Shown here: in pieces, positions 1,588 through 45,628 of the stretch | Numbering within the stretch: position 1 is the stretch's first letter | Layout of the letters: every line of letters begins with the position of its first letter | Assembly: GCA_028712175.1 (NCBI GenBank) | Contig: JAQTQQ010000001.1 | Coordinates: 18,677 to 82,676, forward strand | Length of the DNA: 64,000 nucleotides | Reading direction: 5' to 3' | Source: Candidatus Omnitrophota bacterium | Lineage (GTDB): Bacteria > Omnitrophota > Gorgyraeia > Gygaellales > Profunditerraquicolaceae | Program-made: the position numbers and the translations under genes | Notes under the pieces: model-generated | The model's database searches: none | Told to the model about the DNA's origin: nothing | The model's input: only the letters and a program-made list of their open reading frames with translations

Positions 1588-2775
1588 TTACTCCAGGTAG
1601 GTGTAAATCTTGCCCTTATAATTACGTAAAACATATTTACCCTTGGCCTGGGAAAGGATATAATTTGGCCCCACGGGGATTTTTCCGCCGCCGCCAGGCC
1701 CATCGATCACGTATGTCGGCACAGCATACCCCGAGGTATGCCCGCGCAGTTTTTCGATAATATTTATCCCGACTGCAACAGGTGTGCGAAAATGCTGCGT
1801 GCCCCTGACCGGATCGCATTGATAAATATAATATGGCCTTACCCTTATTTGCAGAAGGTCATGCACAAGGCGCCGCATAATAAACGGACGGTCATTGATG
1901 CCTTTAAGAAGCACCGACTGGCTGCCCAAAGGTATGCCTGACTCAGACAGCATATCGCAGGAATTTTTACAGCGCTTGGTAATTTCCTTGGGATGATTAA
2001 AATGAATACTCATCCAGATAGGAGAATATTTTTTCAACATGTTTACTAATTTTTCGGTAATACGCTGCGGCAAGGTTACCGGAATACGCGTACCTATTCT
2101 TAACAGTTCAACATGCGATATATCGCGGATCTTGGCAATTAAAGATTCCAGAGCTTCATCTTCCAGTGTAAGCGGGTCGCCTCCTGAAATCAACACATCC
2201 CTTATCTTTCGGTTGGATTTAATATACTCTATCGCCGCGTCAAATTTAGTTTCGGGGTTTGAATCTTTTTCCTCATGCTCACCCACTAAGCGCCTGCGCG
2301 TACAATGCCGGCAATACATAGCACAGTGATCCGTAGCTAACAGTAAAACCCTATCCGGATAACGGTGCACTAAATGCGGAGCCGGAGAATCGCGGTCTTC
2401 AGCGCAAGGGTCAGCCATCTCATGAGGAGAGATGGAAAACTCATAGTTAACCGGGACGGACTGCCTTCTTATCGGGCAATCGGGGTCATCAGCATCAATA
2501 AGGCTCGCCCAATAGGGAGTAATTGCCATCGCCAACCTGCCTTTTGCCTTATCTATCCCTTTCTCCTCTTCGGAAGTAAGCTTAATAATTTGGGCTAATT
2601 CTTCTTTAGTTCTAATCCTGTGCTTAAGCTGCCAATGCCAATCTTCCCAATCCAGCGGATTAACGTCTTTATAGAGAGGGATCTGCTGGTAGTCGCGTGA
2701 ACGCTTTGGCGGTTTCGGAATAGCCGGCGTTTCGATCTGCGCTTTTTGATTTTCTAAGCCTACAGGATTATTCAA
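1588..2775 (-). CDS. KamA-family radical SAM aminomutase (lysine or glutamate 2,3-aminomutase-like)
   Basis: 395 aa with a CAMYCRHC (CxxxCxxC) radical-SAM motif and a KamA-type N-terminus (WEDWHWQLKHRIRT). It also carries GGDPL and a C-terminal region typical of 2,3-aminomutases. Confidence 0.85.
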   Translation of the reverse strand: MNNPVGLENQKAQIETPAIPKPPKRSRDYQQIPLYKDVNPLDWEDWHWQLKHRIRTKEELAQIIKLTSEEEKGIDKAKGRLAMAITPYWASLIDADDPDCPIRRQSVPVNYEFSISPHEMADPCAEDRDSPAPHLVHRYPDRVLLLATDHCAMYCRHCTRRRLVGEHEEKDSNPETKFDAAIEYIKSNRKIRDVLISGGDPLTLEDEALESLIAKIRDISHVELLRIGTRIPVTLPQRITEKLVNMLKKYSPIWMSIHFNHPKEITKRCKNSCDMLSESGIPLGSQSVLLKGINDRPFIMRRLVHDLLQIRVRPYYIYQCDPVRGTQHFRTPVAVGINIIEKLRGHTSGYAVPTYVIDGPGGGGKIPVGPNYILSQAKGKYVLRNYKGKIYTYLE

Positions 2776-3773
2776 TTTAAGCCTTTCCTTTCTGAGGCAC
2801 TCATCAATATTGCCTCGATAAGATCTTCATATTTCATTCCGGCGGCATATGCCATTATGGGAAAATTAGATTCTTTAGGATCCAGCCCCGGTAAAGGGTT
2901 AATCTCCAAAACATACGGTATATTAAATTTATCCAAACGGATATCGGTGCGCGAAATATCAAGGCAGCCCACGGCACGGTGTGTACGCAAAGCCGCCTCT
3001 TTTACTATTGCCTCTGTTTTTTCATCGAGCCGGGCCGGGCAATAAAACTCCGGGACTAATCCTAATTCACTGTCCCCCTGAAACTCCTTCATTTTCCAGG
3101 AATAAAAATATTCTCCGCTTTTTTTGCAGCTAGAAAAATCTATTTCTAAAATCGGCAGTACCCTGGTTTTACCGTTTTCTAAAATTCCTACCGTCAGCTC
3201 CTTGCCTTCGATAAATTCCTCAACCAAAGCCTCCTGCCGGTAAACATCTATGCATTCTTTGACCTTTTGGAAAAGATCCTCTTTATTACTAACGACGTTT
3301 GCCTTATTGATGCCTTTTGCAGACCCCTCACAATTAGGCTTGACAATTAGAGGAAACTTTAGCTCTGCTGATAAAACTTCGTCCCCTCTTGTAAAAAGCT
3401 GGAAATTGGGGGTAGGAATATTTTCTGCTTTTAGTATTTTCTTGGTGAGCGCCTTGTTTAATGCCAGGGCAAGTGAAAAAGTATTTGAACCGGTATAAGG
3501 AATATTTAAATAATCCAGCACCGCGGGTACCTCGGATTCGCGGAAACGGCCGTGTTTTCCTTCGGCGATATTAAATACCATATCTACTGTATTTTTTCTA
3601 AAATACGAAAATAGGGCCGGATACTCCACGTCTATCGTATCCACGGAATGCCCCTTAGTTTTAAGCGCAGAGACTACGGAATTAATCGTTTCCTCCGAAT
3701 CACATTCAGAGAAATAATCCGCCGGTTTAAGCGGATCCTTCTTCTTTAAATTGTAAGTTAAGGCGACCTTCAC
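2772..3773 (-). CDS. D-alanine--D-alanine ligase family ATP-grasp enzyme (paralog 1)
   Basis: 333 aa with an ATP-grasp fold (PLIVKP, EEFIEGKELTVGIL, VLEINPLPGL, which is the E-x-N-x-PG motif of the Ddl family). It overlaps the KamA gene by 4 bp. Confidence 0.75.
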   Translation of the reverse strand: MKVALTYNLKKKDPLKPADYFSECDSEETINSVVSALKTKGHSVDTIDVEYPALFSYFRKNTVDMVFNIAEGKHGRFRESEVPAVLDYLNIPYTGSNTFSLALALNKALTKKILKAENIPTPNFQLFTRGDEVLSAELKFPLIVKPNCEGSAKGINKANVVSNKEDLFQKVKECIDVYRQEALVEEFIEGKELTVGILENGKTRVLPILEIDFSSCKKSGEYFYSWKMKEFQGDSELGLVPEFYCPARLDEKTEAIVKEAALRTHRAVGCLDISRTDIRLDKFNIPYVLEINPLPGLDPKESNFPIMAYAAGMKYEDLIEAILMSASERKGLN

Positions 3774-3790
3774 CCCGCACCTTCCTGTTC

Positions 3791-4780
3791 TTAACCCAGC
3801 CCGTTTCTTATGATGGCGCTGTTTAGGATCTTGCCCACAATTTGTTCGTAAGTGATGCCGATATTCTTGGCTACGAGCATAAAAACATCTTCGGTAGACA
3901 AAGACGGCAGCGGGTTAATTTCTAAAACATAAGGATTGCCGTCGTTATCAACACGGAAATCCACCCTGCCAAAATCACGGCACTCGACACTGCGATAAAC
4001 TTTTAAAGCCAGCTCATCCAGCTTTTTTTTCAGCTCTTGCGATATTTTAGCCGGGCAGATATATTCAAGCCTGTCGGAAGTGATCCTGGCAAAGGTATAA
4101 AATTTATCATTTAATTTCAGTTTTCCGTCTATCTTTATCTGGACGACCGGCATAATTTCTGGATTCTCATTTCCTACAATAGCTACCGTGAATTCCTGTC
4201 CGGAGATAAATTCTTCAACCAGGGCCGGCTGCTTATAGGCCGTGGTAATAAACTCAACTTGTTTTTTAAGCTCTTCGGTATTTTCCACGCGCGAGCTTTC
4301 TGTCAGGCCTTTAGACGAACCCTCAAACCGCGGCTTAACAATTAATGGGAATTTACAATGGTCTTGGTTAATCAGGGATTCAGCTGACGGAACTTCAAAA
4401 AACTTAGGGGTAGGAATTTTCTCGGCAATGAAAATCTTCTTAGCCATGACTTTATCCAGGGTCAACCCTAAGGTCAAAGCATCCGCGCCTACAAAAGGGA
4501 CCCCTGCCATCTCGAGTAAAATAGGGACCTGTGATTCGCGGTTCCTGCCGGCCAAACCCTCGGAGATATTAAAAACAATGTCTACGCCCAAGTTATCTAT
4601 CTTATCCAGCAAATTTAAGGCATTACCGATTTTTTTTACTTTAAAACCATTTGCAGCAATGGCATCGGCAATAACATTAATTGTTGAAGGGGCGTCAAAT
4701 TCCGCATTAGCATCAAGGGGATCTCCTTCTTTAAACTTATAATCTGTTTTTAAATCGTATGTTAAACCGACGGTTTTCAT
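3791..4780 (-). CDS. D-alanine--D-alanine ligase family ATP-grasp enzyme (paralog 2)
   Basis: 329 aa with the same architecture as its neighbour (PLIVKP, EEFISGQEFTVAIV, VLEINPLPSL). The two proteins share roughly 35-40% identity. Confidence 0.75.
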   Translation of the reverse strand: MKTVGLTYDLKTDYKFKEGDPLDANAEFDAPSTINVIADAIAANGFKVKKIGNALNLLDKIDNLGVDIVFNISEGLAGRNRESQVPILLEMAGVPFVGADALTLGLTLDKVMAKKIFIAEKIPTPKFFEVPSAESLINQDHCKFPLIVKPRFEGSSKGLTESSRVENTEELKKQVEFITTAYKQPALVEEFISGQEFTVAIVGNENPEIMPVVQIKIDGKLKLNDKFYTFARITSDRLEYICPAKISQELKKKLDELALKVYRSVECRDFGRVDFRVDNDGNPYVLEINPLPSLSTEDVFMLVAKNIGITYEQIVGKILNSAIIRNGLG

Positions 4781-6659: not shown

Positions 6660-7790
6660 CTAATTAATAAATTGATATGTTTTTAAAAATTCTTCTAAAA
6701 CTCTTGCGCCGTTATATAAATTTTCTAAAGATGCATATTCGTCAGCGATATGCGCACAGCCTTCCGTGCCGAATCCTGTAGCAATTGCAGGTATCCCCAT
6801 GCTTTTAAAAAAAGTTATTACCGTTGCGCCTTCCGAACCGCTGATACGCGGCTTAATCTCCAGACTTCTAAAAGCGGAAACCAAGCTGTTTACTAAAGGG
6901 TGCCGCGGATCAATATAATATGGCTCCTGGAGACCCTGGATTTCAATTTTAAAATTATCGGTATATTTAGCAATTACCTTTCTTAGAAAATTTAGGAGTT
7001 CTTTTGCATTTTGACCGGGGAGGAACCTAAAATCTAGTTCGAATTCACACCAGTCGCTGACTACATTAACTTTGTCCCCTCCTTTAATCGTACCGATATT
7101 TATCGTAGGATTTTTAAGGTATTTATTTTTAGGATGCCTTTGATGTTGTTTTTTAAGTTCAACAATCACCTTAGCCGCCAGATCAATTGCATTGACCCCT
7201 AACCAAGGATAAGCGCCGTGTGCTTTTTTTCCGGCAATTTTGACCTTAAGATGCATCAGCCCTTTTTGGGTAATTACAATCTCAAATTCGTCGGCATCCA
7301 GAACAACCGCGGCATCCGCTTTTAAAATTTTCCGCCTTAAGAGGGGGATTAAACCTAACCCTGAACCGCTTTCTTCATCAGCAGTAGCCGCAAGAACCAG
7401 GTTATAATCAAGATTAACACCGTCTTCAACTATGGAATTAACCGCTTCTAATGCACAGGCCAGATTTCCCTTACAATCGGTTGCCCCCAAGCCATAAATC
7501 CGGTTGCCGATAATTTTGGCGCAAAAAGGATCAGTCTTCCAATTGACTCCTGCCGGCACAGTATCTAGGTGCGGCGTAATCAAAAGCGATTTATTCGGCC
7601 TGCGGCTTTTAAGAATTGCAATAACGTTTTCTCTTTTACTGCTAAAGGCATATGTTTTAACTTTAACACCCAGGCCCTTTAAATATGAACTCACAAAAAG
7701 AGCAATCCTGCTTTCATTGCTTCCGGGATTCTGAGAATCAATGGAAATCAATCTTTTAATAGTTTCTATCAAACGTTTCTTATTGACCAT
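6660..7790 (-). CDS. M20-family metallo-amidohydrolase (ArgE/DapE-like)
   Basis: 376 aa with HLDTVP, GATDCKG and a dimerisation lid in the centre, which is typical of acetylornithine deacetylase/succinyl-DAP desuccinylase. Confidence 0.75.
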   Translation of the reverse strand: MVNKKRLIETIKRLISIDSQNPGSNESRIALFVSSYLKGLGVKVKTYAFSSKRENVIAILKSRRPNKSLLITPHLDTVPAGVNWKTDPFCAKIIGNRIYGLGATDCKGNLACALEAVNSIVEDGVNLDYNLVLAATADEESGSGLGLIPLLRRKILKADAAVVLDADEFEIVITQKGLMHLKVKIAGKKAHGAYPWLGVNAIDLAAKVIVELKKQHQRHPKNKYLKNPTINIGTIKGGDKVNVVSDWCEFELDFRFLPGQNAKELLNFLRKVIAKYTDNFKIEIQGLQEPYYIDPRHPLVNSLVSAFRSLEIKPRISGSEGATVITFFKSMGIPAIATGFGTEGCAHIADEYASLENLYNGARVLEEFLKTYQFIN

Positions 7791-8418
7791 TTAAAGGACA
7801 GGCCTCGCATTTAGGGCTACGCTTATGGCAATACTCCTTGCCCAGCTTTACCAAAAGGGCGTGGTATTCATTAAATAACCCTGCATTATTTTTAAGGTTT
7901 TTCATAAAAACCTCCTGCACGCTGAAATAATCTGCTCCTGCCTTAATTAACTTATGGCGCAAAAGTATTCTTTTTGTGTATGCATCTACAACAAATATGG
8001 GTTTATTTAAAGCATATAGTAAAATGGAATCCGCGGTTTCTTGGCCGATGCCGTTTACCCCCAGCAATTGCCGGCGCAAAGTTCCCAAATCAACGGAGGA
8101 AATCTTTTCAAGGCTCAAAGAATAATTATCAAAGAAGAATTTAAGAAAATTCTTAAGCCGCGCGGCCTTAATATTATAATAACCGGCAGGCCTAATCAAA
8201 CCGGATAGCTTCTTGGAAGGCAATTTATAAATCTTTTCAGCATCTAGCAGTTTTTTCTTTTTTAAAGATGCTATTGCTTTTTCTACATTAGACCAGCTGG
8301 TGTTTTGAGTAAGGATTGCCCCGACCATTACCTCAAAAGCGCTCTGCGCAGGCCACCAATACTGCCGGCCGAAGGCAGAATAAAGGCGACGAAAAATACG
8401 GCTTAGCTTGCGTTTCAT
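7780..8418 (-). CDS. Endonuclease III-like HhH-GPD base-excision glycosylase domain protein
   Basis: GAILTQNTSWSNVEKAI, LGVNGIGQETADSILLYAL (HhH-GPD) and a C-terminal CHKRSPKCEACP fragment of a 4Fe-4S loop that appears to lack the fourth Cys. Confidence 0.65.
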   Translation of the reverse strand: MKRKLSRIFRRLYSAFGRQYWWPAQSAFEVMVGAILTQNTSWSNVEKAIASLKKKKLLDAEKIYKLPSKKLSGLIRPAGYYNIKAARLKNFLKFFFDNYSLSLEKISSVDLGTLRRQLLGVNGIGQETADSILLYALNKPIFVVDAYTKRILLRHKLIKAGADYFSVQEVFMKNLKNNAGLFNEYHALLVKLGKEYCHKRSPKCEACPLNGQ

Positions 8419-10352
8419 TCTTTCAGCTCTAACGGATTAAAACCATAATAAGCAAACAGGGCATACACTGTGCCAGAAACTGACCCCGTATGCTTGCCCT
8501 TTGGGGTCATCCAGCCATGCCCTGTATCTACATGATCGCTGGTTGCGTAAGGAAGGCAGCCTTGGCCCTGCCCCGAAGGCGAAGAGCTGGAGATGATCAT
8601 ATTGCCCAGCTGGCTTAAATACATCTCTGATTTTTTCTTATATTTATCCGCATTGGCCAAATTGCCTTTTTTGGCATAAAAATCTTCCATGATCTTATAC
8701 GATACGATCATCTGCGCGGTCCACTCCGAAGAAACAACTCCACCTCTTGCAACATGGCGGCTGGGCGCGAAATCAAAACCTTTTATTTTTACAACTTGAT
8801 TATTCGCACGCAGGAAATTCGCTTCAACACTGCAATTATCCTCAACAAATTCCAGAATTTTATCCGGATCCATTCCTAACTCCAGCAGCTTTTGCGGGCC
8901 GATGGCGGCAATTGACCAGGCATAAGTATCTGTAGCTATAGTAGAATCCCCTTTTCCGCGCTTGACCGGTAAATCCTTGCGGTCATAGGTATTCTTGACA
9001 ATCCAATTAATAACCTTTTCAGCAGCATTGGAATATTGCCTATCTTGCGTAACTTTAGCCAGCATATTGAAAAACGCATAAGCATCAAGATTGTGTTCGG
9101 TAGAATACCACTCAACCGCCGGGCCGCCGCGAATGCCTCCATCGAAATCTTTGTCTTGCATTTGCATAATCACAGAGGCAATACTTTTGGCTAAAGCCAA
9201 ATAACTGTTATCTTGAGTTTTTTGCATATACTGCATAATAGCAATGCCTAACCAGATATTCGGGCCGCTATGCATTATGAATTCCGCCGGTCCGCCATCG
9301 TCGACATAATAAGCATTAAGAAACCATCCGTTTTCTCTTTTGGCGTTATGAGCAAAAAAACCCAGTATCTTCTGTGCGCGGTTATAATCTCCAAATTGCG
9401 TATAAGCCTGGACAAGCAGCGCTAAATCATAAGTAAATGACCAGTTAGCGATCTCTTTATCGCCCTCAAAACTCATCACCAATCCCGTACGGCTGTTTTG
9501 ATGAATTTTAAGCCATTGATACATCTTGTCAAAATTAGCTTTTTCTAGTATTTCCTTTTTCTCATGCAGCTCAGACAACTCTTTGGCAACTTTAGTCTCG
9601 CTGATTAAAACAACGGCCAGCTGGCTTTCTAAAATTGCTTTCTCTTTTGTTAAATCGGAAATCAGGTCATTCAGCTGGTTAACACGGTTTAAATTACCTG
9701 TTTCTATCTGCGCTTTTTGCGACTCAATAGATTTAATGCGTTCCTCTAATATTCTCAACTTTGACTGGAAATTTTGGCGCTCGGCAGTGACCTTTTCAAT
9801 TTTTTGCCGGGCGAGCGTGGAATCTTTCAAAACTAAGGCCAGCTTTTCTACGAGCAGCTTATTACCGCTAGTTAGCTTAATATTTATATAGCTGTTAATA
9901 CCCAAAACTAAAACCAAGATTACTACGAGCGATGAAACTACCGGGACAAAAAGTTTCCTGAACCAGGCATAGCGCATTAATTTACTATTTTGATTTGCAG
10001 ATATCTGTTCATAATTTAACCCGATTAAATATTTGCGCTTATCGCCTCCGACATCCTGAACCCAAACAAAGCTGGCCCGGGCAGCAATAGGTTTATTGCT
10101 GATTGGAATATCAATCTCTAAGGATAGTTTGAATTTTCTCTCATCGAGCAGTTTGAGCAATTGCGGATCAGGATTATTTATACAAAGACATAGGCCTCCC
10201 GGGCCCACATTATTAGTAAACCCCTGCAGCCAGTTTGAAAGAAGGGTTTTTCCGTCTGGCGTTTCGAGGCGGAACTGCACCGGGAATACCGTATCTAGAC
10301 GCAAATACTTTCTTTGTTCCGGTTGCTGCTTTTTCTTGTCCTTTAAGCCCAT
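8415..10352 (-). CDS. PilZ-domain (c-di-GMP receptor-like) membrane protein with a coiled coil and a C-terminal (alpha/alpha)6 six-hairpin-glycosidase-like domain
   Basis: N-terminal RKYLRLD...NNVGPGGL matches the PilZ RxxxR / DxSxxG motifs. A TM helix (LFVPVVSSLVVILVLVLGI) is followed by about 120 aa of heptad-rich coiled coil. The Trp/Tyr-rich C-terminal domain (GWFLNAYYVDDGG...NIWLGIAIMQYM) looks like an alpha-toroid glycosidase. The fold of this last domain is my inference. Confidence 0.5.
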   Translation of the reverse strand: MGLKDKKKQQPEQRKYLRLDTVFPVQFRLETPDGKTLLSNWLQGFTNNVGPGGLCLCINNPDPQLLKLLDERKFKLSLEIDIPISNKPIAARASFVWVQDVGGDKRKYLIGLNYEQISANQNSKLMRYAWFRKLFVPVVSSLVVILVLVLGINSYINIKLTSGNKLLVEKLALVLKDSTLARQKIEKVTAERQNFQSKLRILEERIKSIESQKAQIETGNLNRVNQLNDLISDLTKEKAILESQLAVVLISETKVAKELSELHEKKEILEKANFDKMYQWLKIHQNSRTGLVMSFEGDKEIANWSFTYDLALLVQAYTQFGDYNRAQKILGFFAHNAKRENGWFLNAYYVDDGGPAEFIMHSGPNIWLGIAIMQYMQKTQDNSYLALAKSIASVIMQMQDKDFDGGIRGGPAVEWYSTEHNLDAYAFFNMLAKVTQDRQYSNAAEKVINWIVKNTYDRKDLPVKRGKGDSTIATDTYAWSIAAIGPQKLLELGMDPDKILEFVEDNCSVEANFLRANNQVVKIKGFDFAPSRHVARGGVVSSEWTAQMIVSYKIMEDFYAKKGNLANADKYKKKSEMYLSQLGNMIISSSSPSGQGQGCLPYATSDHVDTGHGWMTPKGKHTGSVSGTVYALFAYYGFNPLELKE

Positions 10353-10562
10353 TTTCCCCTTCTCCTAAATTAATCTTGCGAGCTATATTTTATAACAAAT
10401 GGCAGTTAATGCAATGTGAAATGTTTATATAATACTCTGCTAATTCAATTAACCGGCTTGTTTTGCTCCGGAGCGCAGCTTAAGAATCCTGCGCGGGCAT
10501 GGCGGTGCGGCTATATAACAATAAGAAAGAGGCAAAATTAGGTTCAAGCGGTGCGCCAAAGG

Positions 10563-10589
10563 ATAAAACAAGACGCAGCTAAACTGCGT
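10563..10589 (-). terminator. Rho-independent terminator downstream of the exonuclease gene
   Basis: On the minus strand the hairpin ACGCAG-uuuag-CUGCGU is followed by CUUGUUUUAUCC. Confidence 0.45.
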
Positions 10590-10606
10590 TAAAATATAGC
10601 TATAAA

Positions 10607-11197
10607 TCAAATTTTTGGTTTGAAAGCAAAGAGGTTAGAGAAACTAGCAAGGTCGGCAATTCCTTTTTCCTGGCAGAGTGCTTTAAGTTTGGTAAAAACC
10701 TCCCATGTCATCTCTACGTCGGCCAAAGCCCTGTGCTGCTGTACAGTTCTAATTTCCAGTTTCTGGGCGACAAACCAAAGGGGGTAACGCGCAAGCCCGG
10801 GCAACAGCTTCCTGGCCATGGTAAGAACGTCCAATACCAAGATATTATTAATTGCCGGCAAACCGATCAGTTTAAGTTCATTATTTAAAAAGCTCATGTC
10901 AAATTCAGCATTATATGAACACAGGCAGCTGCCTTTGGTAAAATCTAAGAATTTTGGCATTACCGCACCTATCTCCGGAACACCTTTAAGCATTTCAGGA
11001 GTAATTTTATTTACGGAAAATGCGCCCGCTGAAATGGCCCTGCCCGGATTAATCAGTTCATCGAATACAGCTATCCTCTCTTTGGCCCTGACCTTTAAAG
11101 CCGCCAGTTCAACCATGCGGTCACCTTCCTCCGGCTTTAACCCGGTAGTCTCGGTATCAAATATAGTAATTTCTATTTCATCAATGTTTTCAGGCAT
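10607..11197 (-). CDS. DEDDh 3'-5' exonuclease (DnaQ/epsilon-like)
   Basis: FDTETTG (Exo I), CSYNAEFDMSFL (Exo II) and HRALADV (Exo III). Confidence 0.75.
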   Translation of the reverse strand: MPENIDEIEITIFDTETTGLKPEEGDRMVELAALKVRAKERIAVFDELINPGRAISAGAFSVNKITPEMLKGVPEIGAVMPKFLDFTKGSCLCSYNAEFDMSFLNNELKLIGLPAINNILVLDVLTMARKLLPGLARYPLWFVAQKLEIRTVQQHRALADVEMTWEVFTKLKALCQEKGIADLASFSNLFAFKPKI

Positions 11198-12080
11198 CTC
11201 TGGTTACGATATAAGCCGGGGCCAATTGAACCGGTTTGTATGAAAGTTTTGTTTTACGTAAATTCTCTAAACCCGAATCATCCATAATATTAATATATTT
11301 ATAGCCTTTAAGCTCCTGTGCAAATTTGCGAAAGATAAATTGCGCAAGGCCCTTAAGGGAAAGGTCGGTTATCTCATAAAGTATGCAAAAAGTATCTTTG
11401 TTCAATTTATAACCGAAGCTAAATGCCTTGATTTTTTTATCCACCCTGATGAGAATACCCTCTAAATGCAGCTGCCCATAGTTAGCTAGGGCGTCTTTGA
11501 GCACCCGGCGGCTGTCCTCAAGCATGCCTCGGTAAACATCGTCGCTGCAGCAAAGCCTGCGCTCTGCCGCCCAGAGATTAAACAAATCCAATATTCCTGC
11601 CTTATCCGCTGGGCGCAAAGAACGCCAATCAAAATCATAATGTTTTACAAAATAATTATGGGAGGCGCGCTGCGATTTAAACCTGTTTCCTTTAAGGCTG
11701 GCTAAATCCTCCCTTAAACAGAGATAATCCGGATACTTTTCATGACAAAGATACCCTAGGGCGCGATAATACTCTAAATCGCTTTGCGGGATATTTTCAA
11801 TACGCGAGATATCCTTATTCTTATTACATTTATCCATAATCGCAAACGCCGCTCTTATCGCCTCGGGGTTAGGTTCTTTTGCCAGAGGAGGCAAATACAT
11901 AAAAGAGCCTATCTTATCTCTAAAAAATACACAAAGGCTATTTTTGATTATTTCCCACCTAATTTCATAAAGTGAGCGCCAAATAAAAATATTGGCAAAA
12001 GAAAATGGCGCAAGGCTATGCTCTAACATAGCCAGATACCTATTAAATAGATTCCGGTCTTTTAAGGTTAATTTCCGCAA
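11190..12080 (-). CDS. DUF2156-like protein (GNAT-fold, resembles the C-terminal lysyl-transferase domain of MprF)
   Basis: FSFANIFIWR near the N-terminus and a size of about 300 aa. The assignment rests on memory of the family pattern. Confidence 0.4.
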   Translation of the reverse strand: MRKLTLKDRNLFNRYLAMLEHSLAPFSFANIFIWRSLYEIRWEIIKNSLCVFFRDKIGSFMYLPPLAKEPNPEAIRAAFAIMDKCNKNKDISRIENIPQSDLEYYRALGYLCHEKYPDYLCLREDLASLKGNRFKSQRASHNYFVKHYDFDWRSLRPADKAGILDLFNLWAAERRLCCSDDVYRGMLEDSRRVLKDALANYGQLHLEGILIRVDKKIKAFSFGYKLNKDTFCILYEITDLSLKGLAQFIFRKFAQELKGYKYINIMDDSGLENLRKTKLSYKPVQLAPAYIVTRDA

Positions 12081-12555
12081 CTTCCCTTACCTCTTCGTAC
12101 GCTTGAATAATCTGGGGGTTACTCTTAAGAATATTTAGTTGTTTTGGTGTATTAAGGTAATCCGTCAAATAAGCAATATAATCTTTTGCCTGGATGCTGT
12201 TTATATTTTCATGAACATACGGGCAATTTAAATCAACCGTCAGGAGCACCTTCCCTTTGCGGAGGTTAATGAGAAACGGATACAGTTGGCATTCAAATGG
12301 CCGGATTTGATAAATTTTACAGTTGTTGTCTTGGGCCCCTAAATACGGGCAAACAAAATATGCGCCATCATGGCTGGCTACGGGTGTAATACGGCGGTTA
12401 ATAGAAATCGAGGCAACAGGAATATCTGATCGGTCCAATAACCCCTGGATCTCTTCATCCAGGAGACAGGGGCTCCAAACGGAATCTGCCTCTTTAAAGC
12501 GGCAGCAGCCTTTACATTCTATACAAAATTCCGAAGGGACAAACTGTTTGATCAT
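12043..12555 (-). CDS. YkgJ-family cysteine-cluster protein (UPF0153)
   Basis: CIECKGCC (CxxCxxCC) plus later CPYL...C, CQLYPF and CPY motifs. Confidence 0.6.
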   Translation of the reverse strand: MIKQFVPSEFCIECKGCCRFKEADSVWSPCLLDEEIQGLLDRSDIPVASISINRRITPVASHDGAYFVCPYLGAQDNNCKIYQIRPFECQLYPFLINLRKGKVLLTVDLNCPYVHENINSIQAKDYIAYLTDYLNTPKQLNILKSNPQIIQAYEEVREVAEINLKRPESI

Positions 12556-12872
12556 TTCACAATACTCCCGAGTTTTAATTTTTTCTCAGGGCAAAGAACT
12601 GCAATCCCGCTCTCATCCGAACCCGCCAGAATCATCCCCTGGCTTTCTATGCCGCGTAAAACTACCGGTTCCAAATTATCTATCAATACAACCTGCTTAC
12701 CTATAAGCTCTTCTTTAGTATAAAAAACCCTGATCCCCGCAACCACCTGTTTTTGCCGGTCGCCTAAATCCAGCTTTAAAATTAATAATTTGTCCGCGTT
12801 CGGATGATCATTAACTTCTATAATTTCTGCCACCCTTAATTCTAATTTCTTAAAATCATCGATTGAAGCCAT
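12552..12872 (-). CDS. Standalone tRNA-binding (Myf/EMAP/CsaA-like OB-fold) protein
   Basis: VNDHPNADKLLILKLDLGDRQKQVVAGI...GIESQGMILA is the tRNA-binding domain normally found at the PheT N-terminus or MetG C-terminus. Confidence 0.75.
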   Translation of the reverse strand: MASIDDFKKLELRVAEIIEVNDHPNADKLLILKLDLGDRQKQVVAGIRVFYTKEELIGKQVVLIDNLEPVVLRGIESQGMILAGSDESGIAVLCPEKKLKLGSIVK

Positions 12873-12905: not shown

Positions 12906-14432
12906 TTAAAATTTTAACTCCGCATAAAACTCAACCTGATAGGCATTATTCGCCGATCCGTCACCGCGCAGATAAGGGCTGAATATACTGCCATCCGTAT
13001 CATCGCGCCTTTCTTTATAAAACTTACCCGGGATAAAGACCCCGCCTAAACACCCAACTGTTAAATGCGTGTTCACTCTATAGTCAATAAATAAATCCGC
13101 TTCATAACCTAAATCCCGGGAAAGATACCTGCCTTGGCCGTCTAAAGTTCCAACCGGCCTGGCAAACGCCATGAGATAATACCCGTATAAACTTACGCAA
13201 AGCTTGTCTGTAAAATTATAATCAAATCCGGCCGAAGGCATAATTAAATTTTCAAAATCGCCAGGAGAGAATGTGCCCGGGCGCGGCACGCCATAATTTA
13301 GGCCAAACCCTCCGCTCATAGCAACAATAGGAAGCATGTCCACGTTGCTGCTGCTTATAGCATCACTCAAATTCATATTTGTAGGCGAGGCATAACTAAA
13401 AGCGCGGTTTTTACTGCCTCCATATAGCGTATCTGCGCTCTCTGCATCTTGGGGAGTAGTTTTATTTCCGGAACAAAATAAAAATTGCAGCTCTGGAACA
13501 AATTTTCCAAGAACATAATCAATCCCAGAATAAAAAATATATCCGGTATGCGCGATATCCTTATAATTGCTGTCTGCGCTTTTAGCTAATCCAAAGTTAT
13601 GGGCCGCTTCTATTTTCAGATTAAAATCAGCCCCATTATACTCCCATGCGGTGCCAATTGTACCCAGAAAATCCCTGTTAACCGGGGTGGAAAAAAGATT
13701 ATCTCTTTTCCCTTCTGAAGTATAATCAGCCAACATGCCGATATACGGCCAAAAGCTCTGGCTGCCTGCGGTAATTTTAACATCCGCGGCAAAGAAATTA
13801 GCGGCATTAGGCTCATAACTCTGCCCCTGTTCATCCTCCTGGCGGATATACGGGCCTAAAGGATTCTTATAAACCAAGTCCGGCTTGCAATAATAAATGC
13901 GCCATAATAAATTCTGTGTTTCTCGATAAAGCGTAAATCCGTAATTTTCATAACTGCCATTAAGAGAAAACCCGTTGCCAACTTCATAAACATATGACCC
14001 CGCCTTAAACCTATAATTATCAAAGAGTTTGGAATCAAGCCAAAACTCCTCAACTGACGGTAAAAGTTCTATGCCTCGGTAACTCTCTATTCTGCCGCCA
14101 GAGGTAACTAGTGTATTATGCACAAAAATGGGGGCGCTATAATCATATGGGCCGTTCCGCTCAAGTTTAATATACAGCTTACTTTCCTGGTCCTTAAAAT
14201 CAGCGGTAAGCCCGAAACTATAATCAATACCTAAATATGCAGTATGGTCATCCTTATTATGGCTATCCAAGCTAACTACATTTTTAAGGTTCACTAAATC
14301 CGTGCGCAGACAAGTATCCAGACTAATCCCCAATTGCCCGTTATTGATAAGCTCATGGCTGTATGCGCAAGAGATACTGCTTAAGGTTAAGGCTGAGGGC
14401 AAGGTTAAGAAAAAGAAAATTTTTCTCAGCAT
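12906..14432 (-). CDS. Outer-membrane beta-barrel protein (porin/exporter-like)
   Basis: There is an N-terminal signal peptide. The protein is rich in alternating aromatic/Gly beta-strand patterns and ends in ...YAELKF, a C-terminal Phe typical of OMP sorting. Confidence 0.55.
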   Translation of the reverse strand: MLRKIFFFLTLPSALTLSSISCAYSHELINNGQLGISLDTCLRTDLVNLKNVVSLDSHNKDDHTAYLGIDYSFGLTADFKDQESKLYIKLERNGPYDYSAPIFVHNTLVTSGGRIESYRGIELLPSVEEFWLDSKLFDNYRFKAGSYVYEVGNGFSLNGSYENYGFTLYRETQNLLWRIYYCKPDLVYKNPLGPYIRQEDEQGQSYEPNAANFFAADVKITAGSQSFWPYIGMLADYTSEGKRDNLFSTPVNRDFLGTIGTAWEYNGADFNLKIEAAHNFGLAKSADSNYKDIAHTGYIFYSGIDYVLGKFVPELQFLFCSGNKTTPQDAESADTLYGGSKNRAFSYASPTNMNLSDAISSSNVDMLPIVAMSGGFGLNYGVPRPGTFSPGDFENLIMPSAGFDYNFTDKLCVSLYGYYLMAFARPVGTLDGQGRYLSRDLGYEADLFIDYRVNTHLTVGCLGGVFIPGKFYKERRDDTDGSIFSPYLRGDGSANNAYQVEFYAELKF

Positions 14433-14556: not shown

Positions 14557-15003
14557 ATGGATTGGGGATCGAAAAAAGGGTTTGCTTTACCGGAAATGCT
14601 CTTAGCTGCATTAATCGCCTCGTTTGCGCTCTGCGGCATTTTATTGACTTATATTGCCTGCATGGATTCTATCAAAATATCAAAAAATGCCAGTATCGCT
14701 ACCAGCGCAGCCCAAGGGTTAATTGAGGAGATCCGCAGCACCCCCTTCCCGCAGATTATTACCAATTATGACCGGCTTAATTTTACTGTTAACGGTATTG
14801 CCAACAATAGAGGCATAATCTATATTGATGACTCAAACCCGGAGTTCCTGCTGGTGACGGTGAGTGTCTCTTGGCAGGAGGGCAACAGGATAATCGGCGA
14901 AGATTTAAACTTGAACGGCACGCTTGATACGGGAGAAGATGTTAACGGAAACGGGATTCTTGATTCAACTGTGAAGCTGGTCACGCAAGTGGCTAACCGA
15001 TAA
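14557..15003 (+). CDS. Prepilin-type N-terminal cleavage/methylation domain protein (pseudopilin/minor pilin)
   Basis: KKGFALPEMLLAALIASFAL is a class III signal with G|F...E(+5) followed by a hydrophobic helix. Confidence 0.6.
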   Translation: MDWGSKKGFALPEMLLAALIASFALCGILLTYIACMDSIKISKNASIATSAAQGLIEEIRSTPFPQIITNYDRLNFTVNGIANNRGIIYIDDSNPEFLLVTVSVSWQEGNRIIGEDLNLNGTLDTGEDVNGNGILDSTVKLVTQVANR

Positions 15004-15007
15004 AAAA

Positions 15008-15523
15008 ATGAGAGGCTTAACTTTAGTCGAAATCTTGGTCGCCATACTAATATTCTCTATCATTATGATAGCCATCGGGCTTACTGTGGTTGCAGGTAAA
15101 AATTCATTATTTACGAGCGACACACCGACCCAGCTTCGGCAGAATATTTTATTTTCTATTATGACAATGTCCCGGGAGTTACGCCAGACATCCCCTTCAA
15201 GGACAAATTTGGCCGAAGGCGCAAGCGCGAACTCCATTACGTTCCAAGTCCCCTTTGATAACAACGCTGACGGTATTGTCGTTGATAGCGTGGGCAATAT
15301 AGAATGGGGCAGCAATATTACTTATTCACTTGACGGCTCAAATCAGCTTATTCGCACACAGTCAGGAGTAAGCTCGGTTATTGCTCCTAATATCGTTGTT
15401 TTACAATTTAGCAGGCAGGCAGGAGAAAATAGAATCATCCAAATTGATATTACCGCTCAAAATATAAGCAGCGCGGGGAATTGGCAAGACCAAGAGCAGG
15501 CGATATTAAAGATGAGGAATTAA
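15008..15523 (+). CDS. Prepilin-type pseudopilin/minor pilin
   Basis: MRGLTLVEILVAILIF gives G|LTLVE with Glu at +5. Confidence 0.65.
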   Translation: MRGLTLVEILVAILIFSIIMIAIGLTVVAGKNSLFTSDTPTQLRQNILFSIMTMSRELRQTSPSRTNLAEGASANSITFQVPFDNNADGIVVDSVGNIEWGSNITYSLDGSNQLIRTQSGVSSVIAPNIVVLQFSRQAGENRIIQIDITAQNISSAGNWQDQEQAILKMRN

Positions 15524-15524
15524 T

Positions 15525-16826
15525 ATGCATAACCTTTTTAAAAAACTTAATAATAAGGGAATCGCACTTATCGCCACCTATATGGCAATAACTATACTGC
15601 TTGCTTTTTCAGGATTTATCGTGGAGGTAGGCAACTCTCAGAACAAAACAACAAATACTTTTAAAAGGCAGGCTCAGGCAACAGCTATTGCCGAAGCAGG
15701 TCTTGACCGCGCGCTCATATGGTTAAGGAGCCAGCCTACTCCTCCGGGAAGCTCCACCAATCCCTGGGGAGGGCCGCAAACCCTTGGAATCCCGGCTATC
15801 GGCGCCTATAGCGTTACTATCACCGACCTTGGCTCACCCGGTGGCTCACCCAGCGTAAAGAGATACCGCGTAGCTTCAGTCGGAACGGCGGGCGGGATAA
15901 ACCGGACATTAACTAATTATTTACAAACAGATAATTACGCAAGATACATATGGTTCACTGACAGTGAAAGCTATGGCGGTACAAACGTGTGGTTCTGGGA
16001 CCAAGACATTCTAAACGGGCCGGTACATACCAATAGTCATTTTAATATCAAAGGCGACCCTGTGTTTGACGGAGAGGTGCGCTCCGTAGATGGTTATATA
16101 CGATATTATAACAACGGCAACAATATTAATTCATCTAATTTAAGCAATCCTCCTTATGATCTGCCTGATTTTCGTAGTACGGTAACCTTGGGGGCGGATG
16201 GAACGAACATGCCTACTCAAGCCTTAAGCCTACGCAGCGCCTCTACCAGCGCTGGAGGACTCAGGCTTACCGGAAATTCTACGGTTGTTTTAAACTCAAA
16301 TGGCACAATGAATGTTACTAATTCTGCAAAAGGATGGAATAACCGCAATATGTCCTTGCCTTCTAACGGCGCCCTTTTTGTCAATAGCGGCACTCTCACT
16401 ATTTCCGGAACGCTTAACGGCAGATTAACCGCAGGTTCAAGCCGGGATATTATTATCCCTAATAATATAGTTTACTCTAATGATCCAGCCATAGACCCAG
16501 CGTCTACCGATACCCTGGGGCTGATATCCGAAGAAGATGTAATGATTAGTAGCGGCGCACCGACTAATTTAAGGATAGACGCATCTATTATGGCATTAAA
16601 TACATCATTTATGCTAACCAACTGGTGGGTTGGCCCGGCCAAAGGGACACTGACTGTTTTTGGGGGAATAATCCAGAAGGAGCGTGGCCCGGTAGGGACT
16701 TTTAGCGGAACAACCAAAGTTTCCGGCTATTCTAAAAATTACCAGTATGACACAAGATTATTAAACTCTCCTCCGCCGTTTGTTCCGACTACAGGAGACT
16801 ATATTACATTATCGTGGGAGAACTAA
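15525..16826 (+). CDS. Large PilX-like pilus-associated protein (possible tip adhesin)
   Basis: A PilX_N-like hydrophobic N-terminus (KGIALIATYMAITILL) is followed by about 380 aa rich in N-x-S/T and Gly beta-strand repeats. Confidence 0.4.
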   Translation: MHNLFKKLNNKGIALIATYMAITILLAFSGFIVEVGNSQNKTTNTFKRQAQATAIAEAGLDRALIWLRSQPTPPGSSTNPWGGPQTLGIPAIGAYSVTITDLGSPGGSPSVKRYRVASVGTAGGINRTLTNYLQTDNYARYIWFTDSESYGGTNVWFWDQDILNGPVHTNSHFNIKGDPVFDGEVRSVDGYIRYYNNGNNINSSNLSNPPYDLPDFRSTVTLGADGTNMPTQALSLRSASTSAGGLRLTGNSTVVLNSNGTMNVTNSAKGWNNRNMSLPSNGALFVNSGTLTISGTLNGRLTAGSSRDIIIPNNIVYSNDPAIDPASTDTLGLISEEDVMISSGAPTNLRIDASIMALNTSFMLTNWWVGPAKGTLTVFGGIIQKERGPVGTFSGTTKVSGYSKNYQYDTRLLNSPPPFVPTTGDYITLSWEN

Positions 16827-37254: not shown

Positions 37255-39687
37255 TTATTCACCTTCCTCCGCGATCACCGGAGCAACACAAGAAACTCGG
37301 TCCTTATCTTGTAACTTAATTAACCGCACCCCCTGCGATGAACGCCCGGTTTCGCGGATATCTTTTATTGCACAGCGCAGGAATATTCCGTTTTGGGTAA
37401 TCACCATCAGCTCATCTTTATCATTTACGGTTTTTAAATTTACTGCCTGTCCGTTTTTGTCCGTAACTTTGATATTAATTACGCCTTTGCCCCCGCGGCT
37501 GGTCAAGCGATACTCATCAACAGTCGTACGTTTTGCAAAACCCAGTTCTGTAACCGTAAGTATAGTAGAATCTTTTTGCGGCACGACCATATCAATAACT
37601 TCATCTTTTTTAGCCAAAGATATCGCGCGCACTCCATGCGCGCCTCTACCCATTTCTCGCACCTTATCTTCGGTAAATCTTATAGCCTTGCCCTGCTTGG
37701 TCCCGATAAGCAGTTCCTGTTTCCCGTCGGTCATTTCAACCCCGATTAATGCATCATCTTTATCTAAGGTAATACCGATAATCCCGCCTTTACGCGGATT
37801 GCCGTAAGCATCAAGCTTGGTCTTCTTGATCTGGCCAAACTTAGTAACCATTACCAGGTATTTATCCGCAGAAAACTCTTTTACCGGGATAGTGGAACTT
37901 ACTTTGGCCGTCTGCTCCATTTGCACAAGGTTAATAATCGCCTTGCCTTTAGATATACGGCTTGCCTGCGGTATTTCATAAACTTTTAACCAGTGCACCT
38001 GGCCTTTATCGGTAAAAATTAACAGGTAGTCTTTGGTGGAGGCGACAAAAAGATGCTCGCTAAAATCTTCATCTTTAAGTTCAGCCCCTGTTGCACCAGT
38101 CCCCCCCCGTTTTTGTTTGCGATAAGCGCTTACCGGCAGGCGTTTAATATAACCCCCATGGCTGATCGTTACAACCACATCTTCTTCGGCGATAAAGTCT
38201 TCGACTTCCAGCTCTTCTGCTTCGCCGACTATATCTGTGCGGCGGCTGTCCCCGTATTTTTTCTTTAACTCTTCCAGCTCTTCTTTAATAATTGCTTCGA
38301 TTTTTTTGAGCGAGGCTAAAATCGCCCGGCACAATTCTATCTTCTTTAGGAGCTCCGCATATTCCGCATCAATCTTATCCCGCTCAAGGGCGGTTAGGCG
38401 CTGTAACTGCATTTCGAGGATCGCCTGAGATTGTATCTCTGAAAGCTCGAATTCTTTCATTAAATTCAATTTGGCAGCATCCACGCTCTTAGAAGTTTTA
38501 ATAACCTTGATAATGCGATCGATAAACTTAAGCGCGATCTTTAAGCCTTCTAAAATATGCGCCCTCTTTAAAGCTTTATCTAATTCAAATTGGGTACGCC
38601 TGCGGATAACTACACGGCGATGTTCAATATAACAATCTAATACTTGACGCAAATTTAATACTTTGGGGCGGTTATCAACTAAAGCCAGCATAATAATTCC
38701 AAAGGTGCTTTCCAGCTGGGTGTGTTTAAAAAGCTGGTTCAGGATAATTTGGGATTCGGTATCGCGCTTAAGCTCAACCACTATGCGCATACCTTCTTTA
38801 TCCGACTCATCCCTGATATCGGAAATGCCTTCAATTTTTTTATCATCAACCAGCCCGGCGATAGCTTCAATTAGGGCGGATTTCTGCACCTGATAGGGAA
38901 TTTCGGTAAAAATAATCAGATCTTTACCATTCTTCTGATGCTCAACCGTAGCCCTGGCGCGCATCAGAAGCTTGCCCCTGCCGGTCATATAAGCATCTTT
39001 AATACCGCTTTTACCGCAAATTAAACCTCCGGTCGGAAAATCCGGCCCCTTAATGTAACGCATCAAGTCTTTAATCTCTGCTTCGGGGTGATCAATAAGA
39101 TAAATAAGCGCATCGCATACTTCAGTTAAGTTATGCGGCGGGATATTGGTTGCCATGCCAACAGCAATTCCGCTTGAGCCGTTCACCAAAAGATTGGGCA
39201 GAGTTGCCGGTAAAAGCAGCGGCTCTTTTAAGGAAGAGTCAAAGTTGGGCCCAAAGTTTACTGTTTCCTTCTCAATATCTCCGAGCATTTCATCGCTGAT
39301 TGCGTCAAGGCGCGCCTCAGTATAACGCATGGCAGCTGCAGCGTCCCCGTCAACCGAACCAAAGTTGCCTTGGCCGTCAACTAAAGGATAGCGCAGAGAA
39401 AAATCCTGCGCCATTCTTACCAGAGTATCATAAATAGCCATATCTCCGTGGGGGTGGTATTTACCCATGGTTTCGCCAACGATACGGGCGCACTTTTTAT
39501 AAGGCTTGGAGTGTTCAAGACTCAACTCCCGCATGGCATACAGGATACGACGATGTACGGGTTTCAGCCCGTCGCGGACATCGGGCAGGGCTCGCCCGAC
39601 AATTACACTCATGGCGTAATTTAAATAAGAATCCTTAACCTCGTCCTCAATATATACTTCGATTATTTTTTCGTTGCGCGTGTACAT
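37255..39687 (-). CDS. gyrA: DNA gyrase subunit A
   Basis: [34 protein letters not shown] (QRDR region), with the Tyr active site upstream, and 810 aa. Confidence 0.95.
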
Positions 39688-39689
39688 AG

Positions 39690-42433
<2,744 letters not shown>

Positions 42434-45017: not shown

Positions 45018-45270
45018 CTGCTTCTTCCGTCATTTGACCTATTAACAGTTTATACACAACTTGCATAAATCTGTGGATAAAAATTATTTCTCAAACTTCT
45101 TTGCATGAGGCTATTATAACAAAGCCTAAACTACTTGCAAGCAAAAAAGTTAAACGCCAGCTATTATACAATATTATACTGTGGCGTCAACAAAAAACTT
45201 GACCGCCCGATAAATGTGTGTTACAATTCACAAATCTTAGAAAATATTCACACCCATAAAAGGAGCAGCA
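45018..45270. promoter_or_regulatory. Putative oriC / dnaA-rpmH divergent control region with DnaA boxes
   Basis: A perfect TGTGGATAA (reverse complement of TTATCCACA) at 45072-45080 and a 1-mismatch TTATACACA at 45041-45049. The region is AT-rich and the gene-strand switch occurs exactly here. Confidence 0.4.
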
Positions 45271-45411
45271 ATGAAAAAAAATTTAAAGACACCCACAAAT
45301 ATCGTAGGTAAAAAGCGCCACGGTTTTCGTAGCAAGATGGCGACTAGATCCGGACGCAAGCTGTTAGCCCGTCGTCGGAGCAAAGGCAGAAAGAGGCTTT
45401 GCATTTGAAGC
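45271..45411 (+). CDS. rpmH: 50S ribosomal protein L34
   Basis: Translates to [45 protein letters not shown]. An RBS AGGAG lies 6 nt upstream. It is too short to appear in the ORF track. Confidence 0.85.
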
Positions 45412-45623: not shown

Positions 45624-45628
45624 AATCT

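Follow-up and report, generated by a model that had tools for sequence, protein, structure and literature searches.

The stretch of DNA analyzed here (the window) comprises 64,000 nucleotides from a Candidatus Omnitrophota bacterium (contig JAQTQQ010000001.1 of assembly GCA_028712175.1). At positions 8415–10352 of its minus strand, the list of open reading frames contains a complete coding sequence with an ATG start, which specifies a protein of 645 amino acids (aa) and which we will call the PilZ gene. From the N terminus, the protein consists of a PilZ domain, a transmembrane helix, a coiled coil, and an (α/α)6 domain, and coordinates of its parts are given on the minus strand throughout. 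Each of these elements had been named in a preliminary description of the window, and each was found to be correct by motifs, hydropathy, periodicity, and structure models. The full-length AlphaFold2 (AF2) model has a predicted local distance difference test score (pLDDT) of 80.8. An identical protein (P0001) exists in public metagenome data.

The PilZ domain, the membrane helix, and the stalk

The PilZ domain (positions 9969–10319; aa 12–128), predicted to be cytoplasmic, was delimited by Pfam PF07238, by a family profile, and by AF2. In the AF2 model, six strands (aa 17–30, 42–50, 53–59, 75–80, 89–101, and 104–116; pLDDT 80–92) make up a β-barrel spanning aa 17–116, and a C-terminal helix that starts at aa 119 continues into the transmembrane helix. 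The window protein itself scored just below the cut-off of PF07238 (20.9 bits vs. 22.5; E = 4.8e-4), and the same Pfam family matched 22 of 26 aligned family members, with a best E value of 9e-9. Further, a profile of 25 divergent N termini, which share 25–45% identity with the window protein, matched Bacillus subtilis MotI/YpfA (Protein Data Bank (PDB) entry 5vx6; E = 6e-7) along the full domain and kept the two motifs in register, such that RxxxR aligned to RRQYVR and NxSxGG to NISAGG of MotI. Translation of the window confirmed the RxxxR motif for binding of cyclic di-GMP (c-di-GMP) as R14-K-Y-L-R18 (positions 10299–10313) and the second PilZ motif, [D/N]xSxxG, as N48-V-G50-P-G-G53 (positions 10194–10211). 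Among 165 full-length homologs, RxxxR was present in 163 and [DN]x[SAGT]xxG in 160, mostly as NIS.GG. The window protein has Gly (Gly-50) in place of the motif Ser, as do ~30 of the 165, the majority having Ser. Arg-14, Arg-18, and Gly-53 are invariant across the divergent N termini, and Asn-48 is conserved. We conclude from these alignments that the PilZ assignment is solid at the level of the family and that the domain is, by prediction, a canonical PilZ domain in which both c-di-GMP-binding motifs appear to be under strong selection and c-di-GMP would be bound. The earlier call of a PilZ domain, made from motifs of the form RxxxR...N/DxVGxGG, was therefore borne out when the binding residues were aligned more closely. 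According to a survey of PilZ proteins, c-di-GMP binding is invariably kept where a PilZ domain is part of a fusion protein, and the PilZ C-terminal helix mediates interactions, dimerization of Alg44 included (10.1101/814665).

The single transmembrane helix (LFVPVVSSLVVILVLVLGI; positions 9897–9953; aa 134–152) has a Kyte-Doolittle mean of 2.98 over 19 residues. Because there is one such helix and positively charged residues (R, RK) flank it on the N-terminal side, we infer that the PilZ domain is cytoplasmic and that the remainder of the protein, including the barrel, lies outside the inner membrane in the periplasm. Standalone and multidomain homologs of the barrel begin with signal peptides.

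Between membrane and barrel lies a coiled-coil stalk of ~130 aa (positions 9504–9890; aa 155–283) with a break or variable loop near aa 215–220. AF2 modeled long helices at aa 119–214 and 221–283, so that a single uninterrupted helix (aa 119–214) comprises the C-terminal helix of the PilZ domain, the transmembrane helix, and the first helix of the stalk. The hydrophobic periodicity of the stalk at 3.5 residues had a power of 1.47 compared with 0.22 ± 0.21 in shuffled sequences, and none of 2000 shuffles was as high. Among 112 homologs having both anchors, 82 have a stalk of identical length; of the 30 variants, 20 are longer by seven residues and two by 14, so 22 of 30 differ by exactly +7 or +14. 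Because the variants mostly follow this spacing, selection appears to act on the phase of the heptads, which would be expected of a stalk that relays a conformational signal or fixes an exact distance. As modeled, the stalk would be either extended (~20 nm) or a helical hairpin (~9 nm).

The six-hairpin barrel and its conserved pocket

The C-terminal ~360 aa (positions 8418–9500; aa 285–645) constitute a predicted periplasmic (α/α)6 six-hairpin domain, as judged by a model of the domain, Foldseek, and Pfam. Modeled alone from a diverse alignment, the domain has 11–12 helices, a pLDDT of 91.8, and a predicted template modeling score of 0.93, and the full-length model gives the same (α/α)6 barrel. 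Foldseek returned 317 matches in the PDB at E ≤ 1e-3, and the best 50 of these 317 are almost all (α/α)6 carbohydrate-active enzymes. The top match was the GH76 α-mannanase BT2949 (4v1s; E = 4.7e-10; template modeling (TM) score, 0.61–0.65; 17% identity), and other six-hairpin folds, namely AGE-type epimerases, MmpH, and GH8-like, GH15-like, and GH88/105 proteins, were matched at an essentially equal level (TM score, 0.55–0.72; 9–13% identity). The content of Trp and Tyr is 7.8% in the barrel compared with 1.9–5.4% elsewhere in the protein. Structure prediction and Foldseek thus agree with the view of the preliminary description that the C terminus is a Trp/Tyr-rich α-toroid of ~330 aa.

At the level of sequence, Pfam GH76 (PF03663) was matched with 28.7 bits (cut-off, 25.9) over profile positions 89–218 of 366 only, and the same family matched 18 of 26 family members at E ≤ 0.01. 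Two GH76 structures were also found by sequence, 4v1r (E = 2.7e-6) and, with the family profile, 4mu9 (E = 7.7e-4). GH76 is the sole relative detectable by sequence, the nearest yet a remote one. Distant relatives of the barrel gave either no Pfam match or scattered matches below threshold within the six-hairpin clan (GH76, GH88, GlcNAc_2-epim, GH127, and LanC-like). An NCBIfam scan of the window protein yielded nothing relevant, and the family scans of it contained no HlyD or MFP match. A GH8-like reading, which drew on an "ATD" motif and E-to-D spacing, was dropped, as no GH8 sequence or profile match was found and GH8-like structures were no better as fold matches. MmpH (7qsj), which its paper relates to GH15 and GH125, was likewise put aside as a functional guide; it gave the best TM score and root mean square deviation, but that paper offers no transferable mapping of catalytic residues.

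GH76 enzymes depend on two adjacent Asp residues, the nucleophile and the acid/base (D124/D125 in BcGH76 and D136/D137 in GH76A), a role corroborated by the titles of PDB entries for the D125N and D136A/D137A mutants. In HMMER alignments, this pair is absent from the window protein, where its counterpart is G363-P364 (positions 9261–9266): the DDNIW of 4mu9 aligns to the GPNIW of the barrel family, 4mu9, 4c1s, and 6u4z have Asp at profile position 119, opposite Pro-364, and the D136A/D137A mutant 6shm is in register. We aligned 95 divergent representatives (43 fused, 25 standalone, 11 other, and 16 from giant proteins) to a hidden Markov model of the domain, and position 363 was Gly in 89 and Asp in none. 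Because the Asp-Asp pair is replaced by Gly-Pro and position 363 is never Asp, the barrel is predicted not to be a GH76 enzyme by the defining dyad of that family. The GH76-type glycoside hydrolase that had been implied for the window protein is therefore not borne out.

The same alignment revealed other positions that are nearly invariant in the 95 representatives. These are Asp-309 (90/95; also invariant in the A2 alignment), which together with Tyr-308 (89/95) marks the start of inner helix 1 and is a candidate pocket residue (positions 9426–9428 for Asp-309); Glu-419 (91/95), His-420 (70/95), and Asp-423 (85/95) in E419-H-N-L-D423 at the start of inner helix 5 (positions 9084–9098), the two carboxylates of which are candidate catalytic residues; Arg-465 (83/95), Asp-469 (85/95), and Asp-475 (92/95) in the loop and start of inner helix 7, R465-G-K-G-D469-S-T-I-A-T-D475 (positions 8928–8960); and Glu-543 (91/95; positions 8724–8726), followed by Trp-544 (81/95) and Thr-545 (87/95) in S-x-E-W-T at the start of inner helix 9. 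Further conserved barrel residues are Tyr-602 (89/95), Trp-367 (84/95), and His-612 (70/95). The GH76 counterparts of Glu-419 and Asp-423 in 4mu9 are Cys and Pro. Conserved acidic residues, for which a search had been suggested as a check on catalysis, are thus present in the alignments of homologs (Asp-309, Glu-419, Asp-423, Asp-469, Asp-475, and Glu-543) but are not the GH76 dyad.

We note that the conserved residues fall in the first turn of the odd-numbered (inner) helices or in the loop just before, with the helix-start motifs YD (helix 1), GPNxW (helix 3), TEHNxD (helix 5), DxxxATD (helix 7), SxEWT (helix 9), and GSxxGT (helix 11). In six-hairpin enzymes, the active-site funnel is located at the N termini of the inner helices. 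Further, the same pocket constellation is common to the fused, the secreted standalone, and the giant-protein forms, and the giants have Glu-419, Asp-475, Asp-309, Arg-465, and Asp-469 in 16 of 16 cases. Its presence in all architectural contexts points to a conserved catalytic or ligand-binding center. Overall, we conclude from the conservation pattern that the barrel represents a separate, uncharacterized six-hairpin family with a near-invariant acidic pocket of its own.

Distribution and genomic neighborhood of the fusion

Of 1,300 homologs scored, the best 120 are all full length (~645 aa), share 60–100% identity, and come from metagenome-assembled genomes (MAGs) of Candidatus Omnitrophota. 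When 1.84 billion cluster representatives were searched exhaustively with a profile, 1,714 matches were obtained, 195 of them at E ≤ 1e-30; the full architecture of PilZ domain, transmembrane helix, coiled coil, and barrel is carried by ~50 clusters (at 50% identity), and the fusion is encoded in at least 346 loci of GTDB species representatives. Because at least 346 species-level genomes and ~50 clusters of full architecture have kept it, the fusion as a whole appears to be under strong purifying selection. Locus counts out of 80 refer to 80 of these 346 loci, which bear Omnitrophota labels save for generic pipeline labels and one "Margulisiibacteriota" record. Many records with the same synteny are titled "uncultured Planctomycetales bacterium" (L007, L021, L022, L036, L037, and others) and one "Candidatus Margulisiibacteriota" (L077); these titles are probably generic or wrong MAG labels. 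Databases name the protein "PilZ domain-containing protein" and occasionally "Glycosyl hydrolase family 76/PilZ domain," and one NCBI record reads "glycoside hydrolase family 76 protein." Databases thus already show the two domains together, but their pairing is uncharacterized.

The barrel also exists in other architectures. A standalone form of ~370–450 aa with a signal peptide is found in Omnitrophota and in cultured Desulfobacterota, for example Desulfosarcina cetonica (as an "exported hypothetical protein") and Trichloromonas acetexigens. It is further found inside very large proteins of 1,000–7,886 aa, such as P0234 (5,959 aa; six matched stretches), P0244 (7,886 aa), P0219 (3,817 aa), and P0215 (3,011 aa), which have one or several copies with the same pocket and which are probably "Archaeovorin" proteins of Omnitrophota. 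In P0193 (871 aa) and P0194 (967 aa), the barrel is C-terminal to MgtE_N/FliG-like repeats (Pfam E = 6e-8 to 5e-5), a second architecture that pairs it with a module that is usually cytoplasmic; the N terminus of P0194 is a signal or anchor helix. In a preprint on giant genes of Omnitrophota, a fold resembling GH76 (4C1S) is described for an Archaeovorin protein; the giant genes are reported to contain GGDEF domains and to have small pilZ genes downstream, and roles in degrading the cell walls of prey are proposed (10.1101/2023.11.21.568195). Because pilZ genes and GGDEF domains are reported there (10.1101/2023.11.21.568195), components of c-di-GMP signaling exist in Omnitrophota. The shared barrel suggests, although it does not prove, a common glycan target of the fusion and the giant proteins.

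The intergenic region upstream of the PilZ gene (positions 10353–10606, minus strand) contains a terminator-like hairpin (10573–10589) 3′ of the upstream RNase_T-family gene, an AT-rich −10-like box, and a strong ribosome-binding site, AGGAGAAGGGG, preceding the ATG. The hairpin, the box, and the ribosome-binding site suggest that the PilZ gene may head its own transcription unit. Downstream, the stop codon of the PilZ gene and the ATG of an EndoIII-like HhH-GPD gene (positions 7780–8418, minus strand; Pfam HhH-GPD, E = 6e-17) overlap in the sequence ATGA. This adjacency is kept in 67 of 80 loci, and the link is probably positional rather than functional.

The order of the genes around the PilZ gene is outer-membrane protein (OMP), tRNA_bind, CxxCxxCC, LPG_synthase_C, RNase_T (a DnaQ-like exonuclease), PilZ gene, HhH-GPD, M20 peptidase, PAC2, and HAD. 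Across homologs of 52–80% identity, synteny is retained for HhH-GPD (67/80 loci), M20 (69/80), and PAC2 (66/80), and distant members have HypF-like, HypD-like, and TPR/transglutaminase-like genes inserted upstream. The wider surroundings include dnaA, dnaN, gyrB, gyrA, and yidC plus a pyrimidine-biosynthesis cluster. We rejected the neighborhood as functional evidence, as it is strongly syntenic over 80 genomes yet functionally heterogeneous; the synteny reflects vertical inheritance of a core gene and not an operon of related function. Remodeling of an exopolysaccharide, which the preliminary description had put forward, finds no support in a context that is a housekeeping backbone near oriC (DnaQ-like exonuclease, EndoIII-like, M20, PAC2, and HAD). 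The window contains no second copy of the PilZ or the barrel domain, and in the contexts of the standalone paralogs (Trichloromonas, Desulfosarcina, and Omnitrophica WOR_2) the neighbors were variable and unrelated and included no carbohydrate operon.

Several other features of the window were noted. In the origin region, dnaA (43671–45017), dnaN (42438–43529), gyrB (39690–42149), and gyrA (37255–39687) lie on the minus strand and yidC (45629–47158, plus strand) diverges from them; the gap between them, 45018–45628, is a candidate oriC. The OMP gene (12906–14432, minus strand) encodes 508 aa with a signal peptide and a weak C-terminal match to Alginate_exp (E = 4e-5, below the cut-off). It lies upstream of the PilZ gene, the reverse of the order first described, and is kept there in 25 of 80 loci; Pfam returned nothing for its homologs, and the protein may represent a new outer-membrane β-barrel family. 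Divergent from the OMP gene are three consecutive genes (14557–16826, plus strand; 148, 171, and 433 aa) with prepilin-like N-terminal hydrophobic segments, which are probably pseudopilins of a type II secretion system (T2SS) or a type IV pilus (T4P)-like system; their divergent transcription, too, corrects the order first described. A T2SS/T4P-like system is reported to be conserved in Omnitrophota (10.1101/2023.11.21.568195).

Between the PilZ gene and the OMP gene, the LPG_synthase_C-like and CxxCxxCC zinc/iron-chelating genes (11190–12080 and 12043–12555, both minus strand) overlap, the former corresponding to the C-terminal domain of an aminoacyl-phosphatidylglycerol synthase without the membrane flippase part. 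A standalone tRNA-binding-domain protein (12552–12872) adjoins this pair, and the trio, which is syntenic across Omnitrophota, could together transfer aminoacyl groups in a tRNA-dependent manner. Downstream of the HAD gene, at 1588–4780 (minus strand), lie two D-Ala-D-Ala-ligase-like ATP-grasp genes and a lysine-2,3-aminomutase-like radical-SAM gene, earlier described as an aminomutase cluster. The first ATP-grasp gene (3791–4780) was confirmed by Pfam, the second and the aminomutase being assigned from the syntenic locus L004; the group is possibly a pathway for β-lysine or peptide ligation.

Proposed mechanism, rival explanations, and known systems

We propose, with a probability of roughly 0.55, that the protein is an inner-membrane c-di-GMP receptor that relays a cytoplasmic signal from the inside out to a periplasmic sugar-handling barrel. 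Binding of c-di-GMP by the membrane-proximal PilZ domain would reorder the RxxxR arm, and c-di-GMP might bridge two PilZ barrels or protomers, as in Alg44. The packing or register of the contiguous transmembrane and coiled-coil helices would then change, and this change would switch the activity, the accessibility, or the partner binding of the periplasmic barrel. The barrel would most likely be glycan-active (a hydrolase, lyase, or transglycosylase) on an envelope or surface polysaccharide, with a catalytic apparatus that differs from that of GH76 and for which Glu-419/Asp-423, Asp-469/Asp-475, Glu-543, and Asp-309 are candidates. An intracellular signal thus probably controls a sugar-handling activity in the cell envelope. 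A bolder form of this proposal, which we regard as tentative and against which the odds lie, is that of a phylum-wide inside-out switch, in which c-di-GMP gates, via a phase-conserved stalk, a periplasmic enzyme of an unrecognized six-hairpin family whose catalytic center is not that of GH76. The giant Archaeovorin proteins, which are implicated in attack on the walls of prey cells, would use the same catalytic module, and the fusion would thereby link the state of the second messenger to the processing of envelope or prey glycans in attachment or predation.

If the proposal is true, a second messenger would directly control an extracytoplasmic glycan-active module. The barrel family is widespread in Omnitrophota, is found as a standalone protein also in Desulfobacterota, and is common to giant proteins proposed to mediate predation; the compact fusion of 645 aa or the secreted paralogs of ~430 aa (from cultured Desulfosarcina and Trichloromonas) would offer tractable routes to the substrate of the module. 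Further, the window protein would be a clean natural system for studying how a signal passes through a single transmembrane helix and a coiled coil.

Several observations weigh against the receptor proposal. That the conserved residues cluster in a single funnel is deduced from the register of the modeled helices, and the conserved pocket could serve for binding and not for catalysis. Gly in place of the motif Ser (NVGPGG) might weaken the predicted binding of c-di-GMP in the window protein. The genomic context contains no genes for polysaccharide synthesis or export, and no glycosyltransferase gene is linked to the PilZ gene, so any substrate named for the barrel is a guess. In a search for GGDEF, EAL, and HD-GYP genes in the 64-kb window and in ~1.1 Mb of loci, only spurious regular-expression matches were obtained, a crude test that covers the same syntenic region and is uninformative genome-wide.

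The absence of the GH76 dyad bears on two other explanations in opposite ways. It would suit a c-di-GMP-regulated scaffold or co-polymerase, in which the barrel is a non-catalytic module that binds glycan or protein, like the periplasmic part of Alg44, and c-di-GMP would control the assembly of an envelope-spanning machine for polysaccharide secretion or pilus/T2SS-like attachment. The layout of an N-terminal PilZ domain, one transmembrane helix, and a periplasmic helical domain is Alg44-like, the two stalk helices are nearly equal in extent (aa 153–214 and 221–283) and would suit an MFP-like α-hairpin, and pilin-like and OMP genes lie close by in the window. We nevertheless consider a scaffold unlikely: five or six carboxylates together with Arg, Tyr, and His are near invariant at the N termini of the inner helices across architectures, which is more common in catalysis than in binding, and no synthase or partner gene is syntenic. 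Conversely, the Gly-Pro pair at 363–364 largely refutes a true GH76 endo-α-1,6-mannanase or Dfg5-like transglycosylase under c-di-GMP control, to which we give hardly any credence. GH76 is the top match by Pfam, by PDB sequence, and by Foldseek, and NCBI names one homolog accordingly; however, the sequence match spans just two of six hairpins at 12–17% identity, and the fold similarity (TM score, ~0.61–0.70) does not exceed that to AGE epimerases, MmpH, or GH8-like and GH15-like barrels.

Among those barrels, AGE-type structures are some of the best fold matches (6f04, E = 3e-8; 5zhb; 8h1l), NCBI names one standalone homolog "AGE family epimerase/isomerase," and His-420 and His-612 are fairly conserved. 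That the barrel is an AGE-type sugar epimerase or isomerase and not polymer-active is nonetheless highly improbable, as no match to AGE families was found at the level of sequence, identity to AGE structures is 9–12%, and the barrel is exported or periplasmic, by prediction, in every architecture observed. Free sugars are the substrates of AGE enzymes, which are located in the cytoplasm. The remaining explanation concerns the other end of the protein: a constitutive, membrane-anchored periplasmic enzyme, the PilZ domain of which is blind to the ligand and serves as a structural or protein-interaction module, as in Xanthomonas and Pseudomonas PilZ protein. The Gly at the motif Ser, the Pfam PilZ score below the cut-off, and the lack of c-di-GMP turnover genes seen nearby would fit such a domain. 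Retention of the motifs in ~97–99% of homologs, with Arg-14, Arg-18, and Gly-53 invariant, would be unexpected without ligand binding; further, PilZ proteins that do not bind c-di-GMP typically lack the motifs, and fused PilZ domains retain binding (10.1101/814665). We therefore hold a ligand-blind PilZ domain to be improbable, and return to the reading of the protein as a c-di-GMP receptor in comparing it with known systems.

PilZ receptors control glycosyltransferases (BcsA), co-polymerases (Alg44), flagellar motors, chemoreceptors, and transcription factors. The fusions listed in two surveys of PilZ architectures are to GT2, HlyD, REC, GGDEF, EAL, HD-GYP, MCP, CheC, and kinases, and no fusion to a glycosidase fold is among them (one such survey, 10.1101/814665); nor was a literature report found in which PilZ is joined through the membrane to a domain of glycosidase fold. 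The regulatory architecture is thus unusual, as had been suggested, in the sense that the surveys do not contain it, but it is not rare, being present in hundreds of Omnitrophota species and already annotated automatically. What would be new is that a PilZ receptor acts across the membrane through a six-hairpin family not yet described.

Among PilZ domains of known structure, the nearest in sequence is that of B. subtilis MotI/YpfA, which aligns at both binding motifs, and MotI is a soluble two-domain flagellar clutch protein without a membrane or periplasmic part. The GH76 mannanases (BT2949, 4v1s; BT3792, 4c1s; BT_3782, 4mu9; and Bacillus circulans Aman6, 4d4a) have in common with the barrel the (α/α)6 fold, an N-x-W motif in helix 3, and the two hairpins after it, whereas only about a third of the domain can be aligned by sequence, at 12–17% identity. 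The giant Archaeovorin proteins (1,000–7,900 aa) contain the same six-hairpin family and pocket, and the GH76-like domain described in the preprint (10.1101/2023.11.21.568195) may belong to this family; in them, the barrel is one of dozens of modules and PilZ is the product of a separate gene, whereas the window protein fuses both in 645 aa.

The closest architectural analog is Alg44, the alginate co-polymerase of Pseudomonas aeruginosa (PilZ structures 4RT0/4RT1), which likewise has a canonical cytoplasmic PilZ domain, a single transmembrane helix, and a largely helical periplasmic domain, and no sequence match to which was obtained in the PDB searches. In Alg44, binding of c-di-GMP in the cytoplasm controls an envelope process, and the C-terminal helix of the PilZ domain takes part in dimerization (10.1101/814665). 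Its periplasmic part is HlyD/MFP-like, whereas that of the window protein is a six-hairpin barrel, and it is encoded in the alginate operon beside the glycosyltransferase Alg8, whereas no synthase is linked to the PilZ gene. In concept, the closest analog is LapD of Pseudomonas fluorescens, in which a degenerate EAL domain senses c-di-GMP and acts via a HAMP linker and the periplasmic domain sequesters the protease LapG. LapD has no homology with the window protein, and what the two have in common is the concept of a c-di-GMP-binding domain in the cytoplasm whose signal crosses the membrane and is passed by a helical linker to an output domain in the periplasm.

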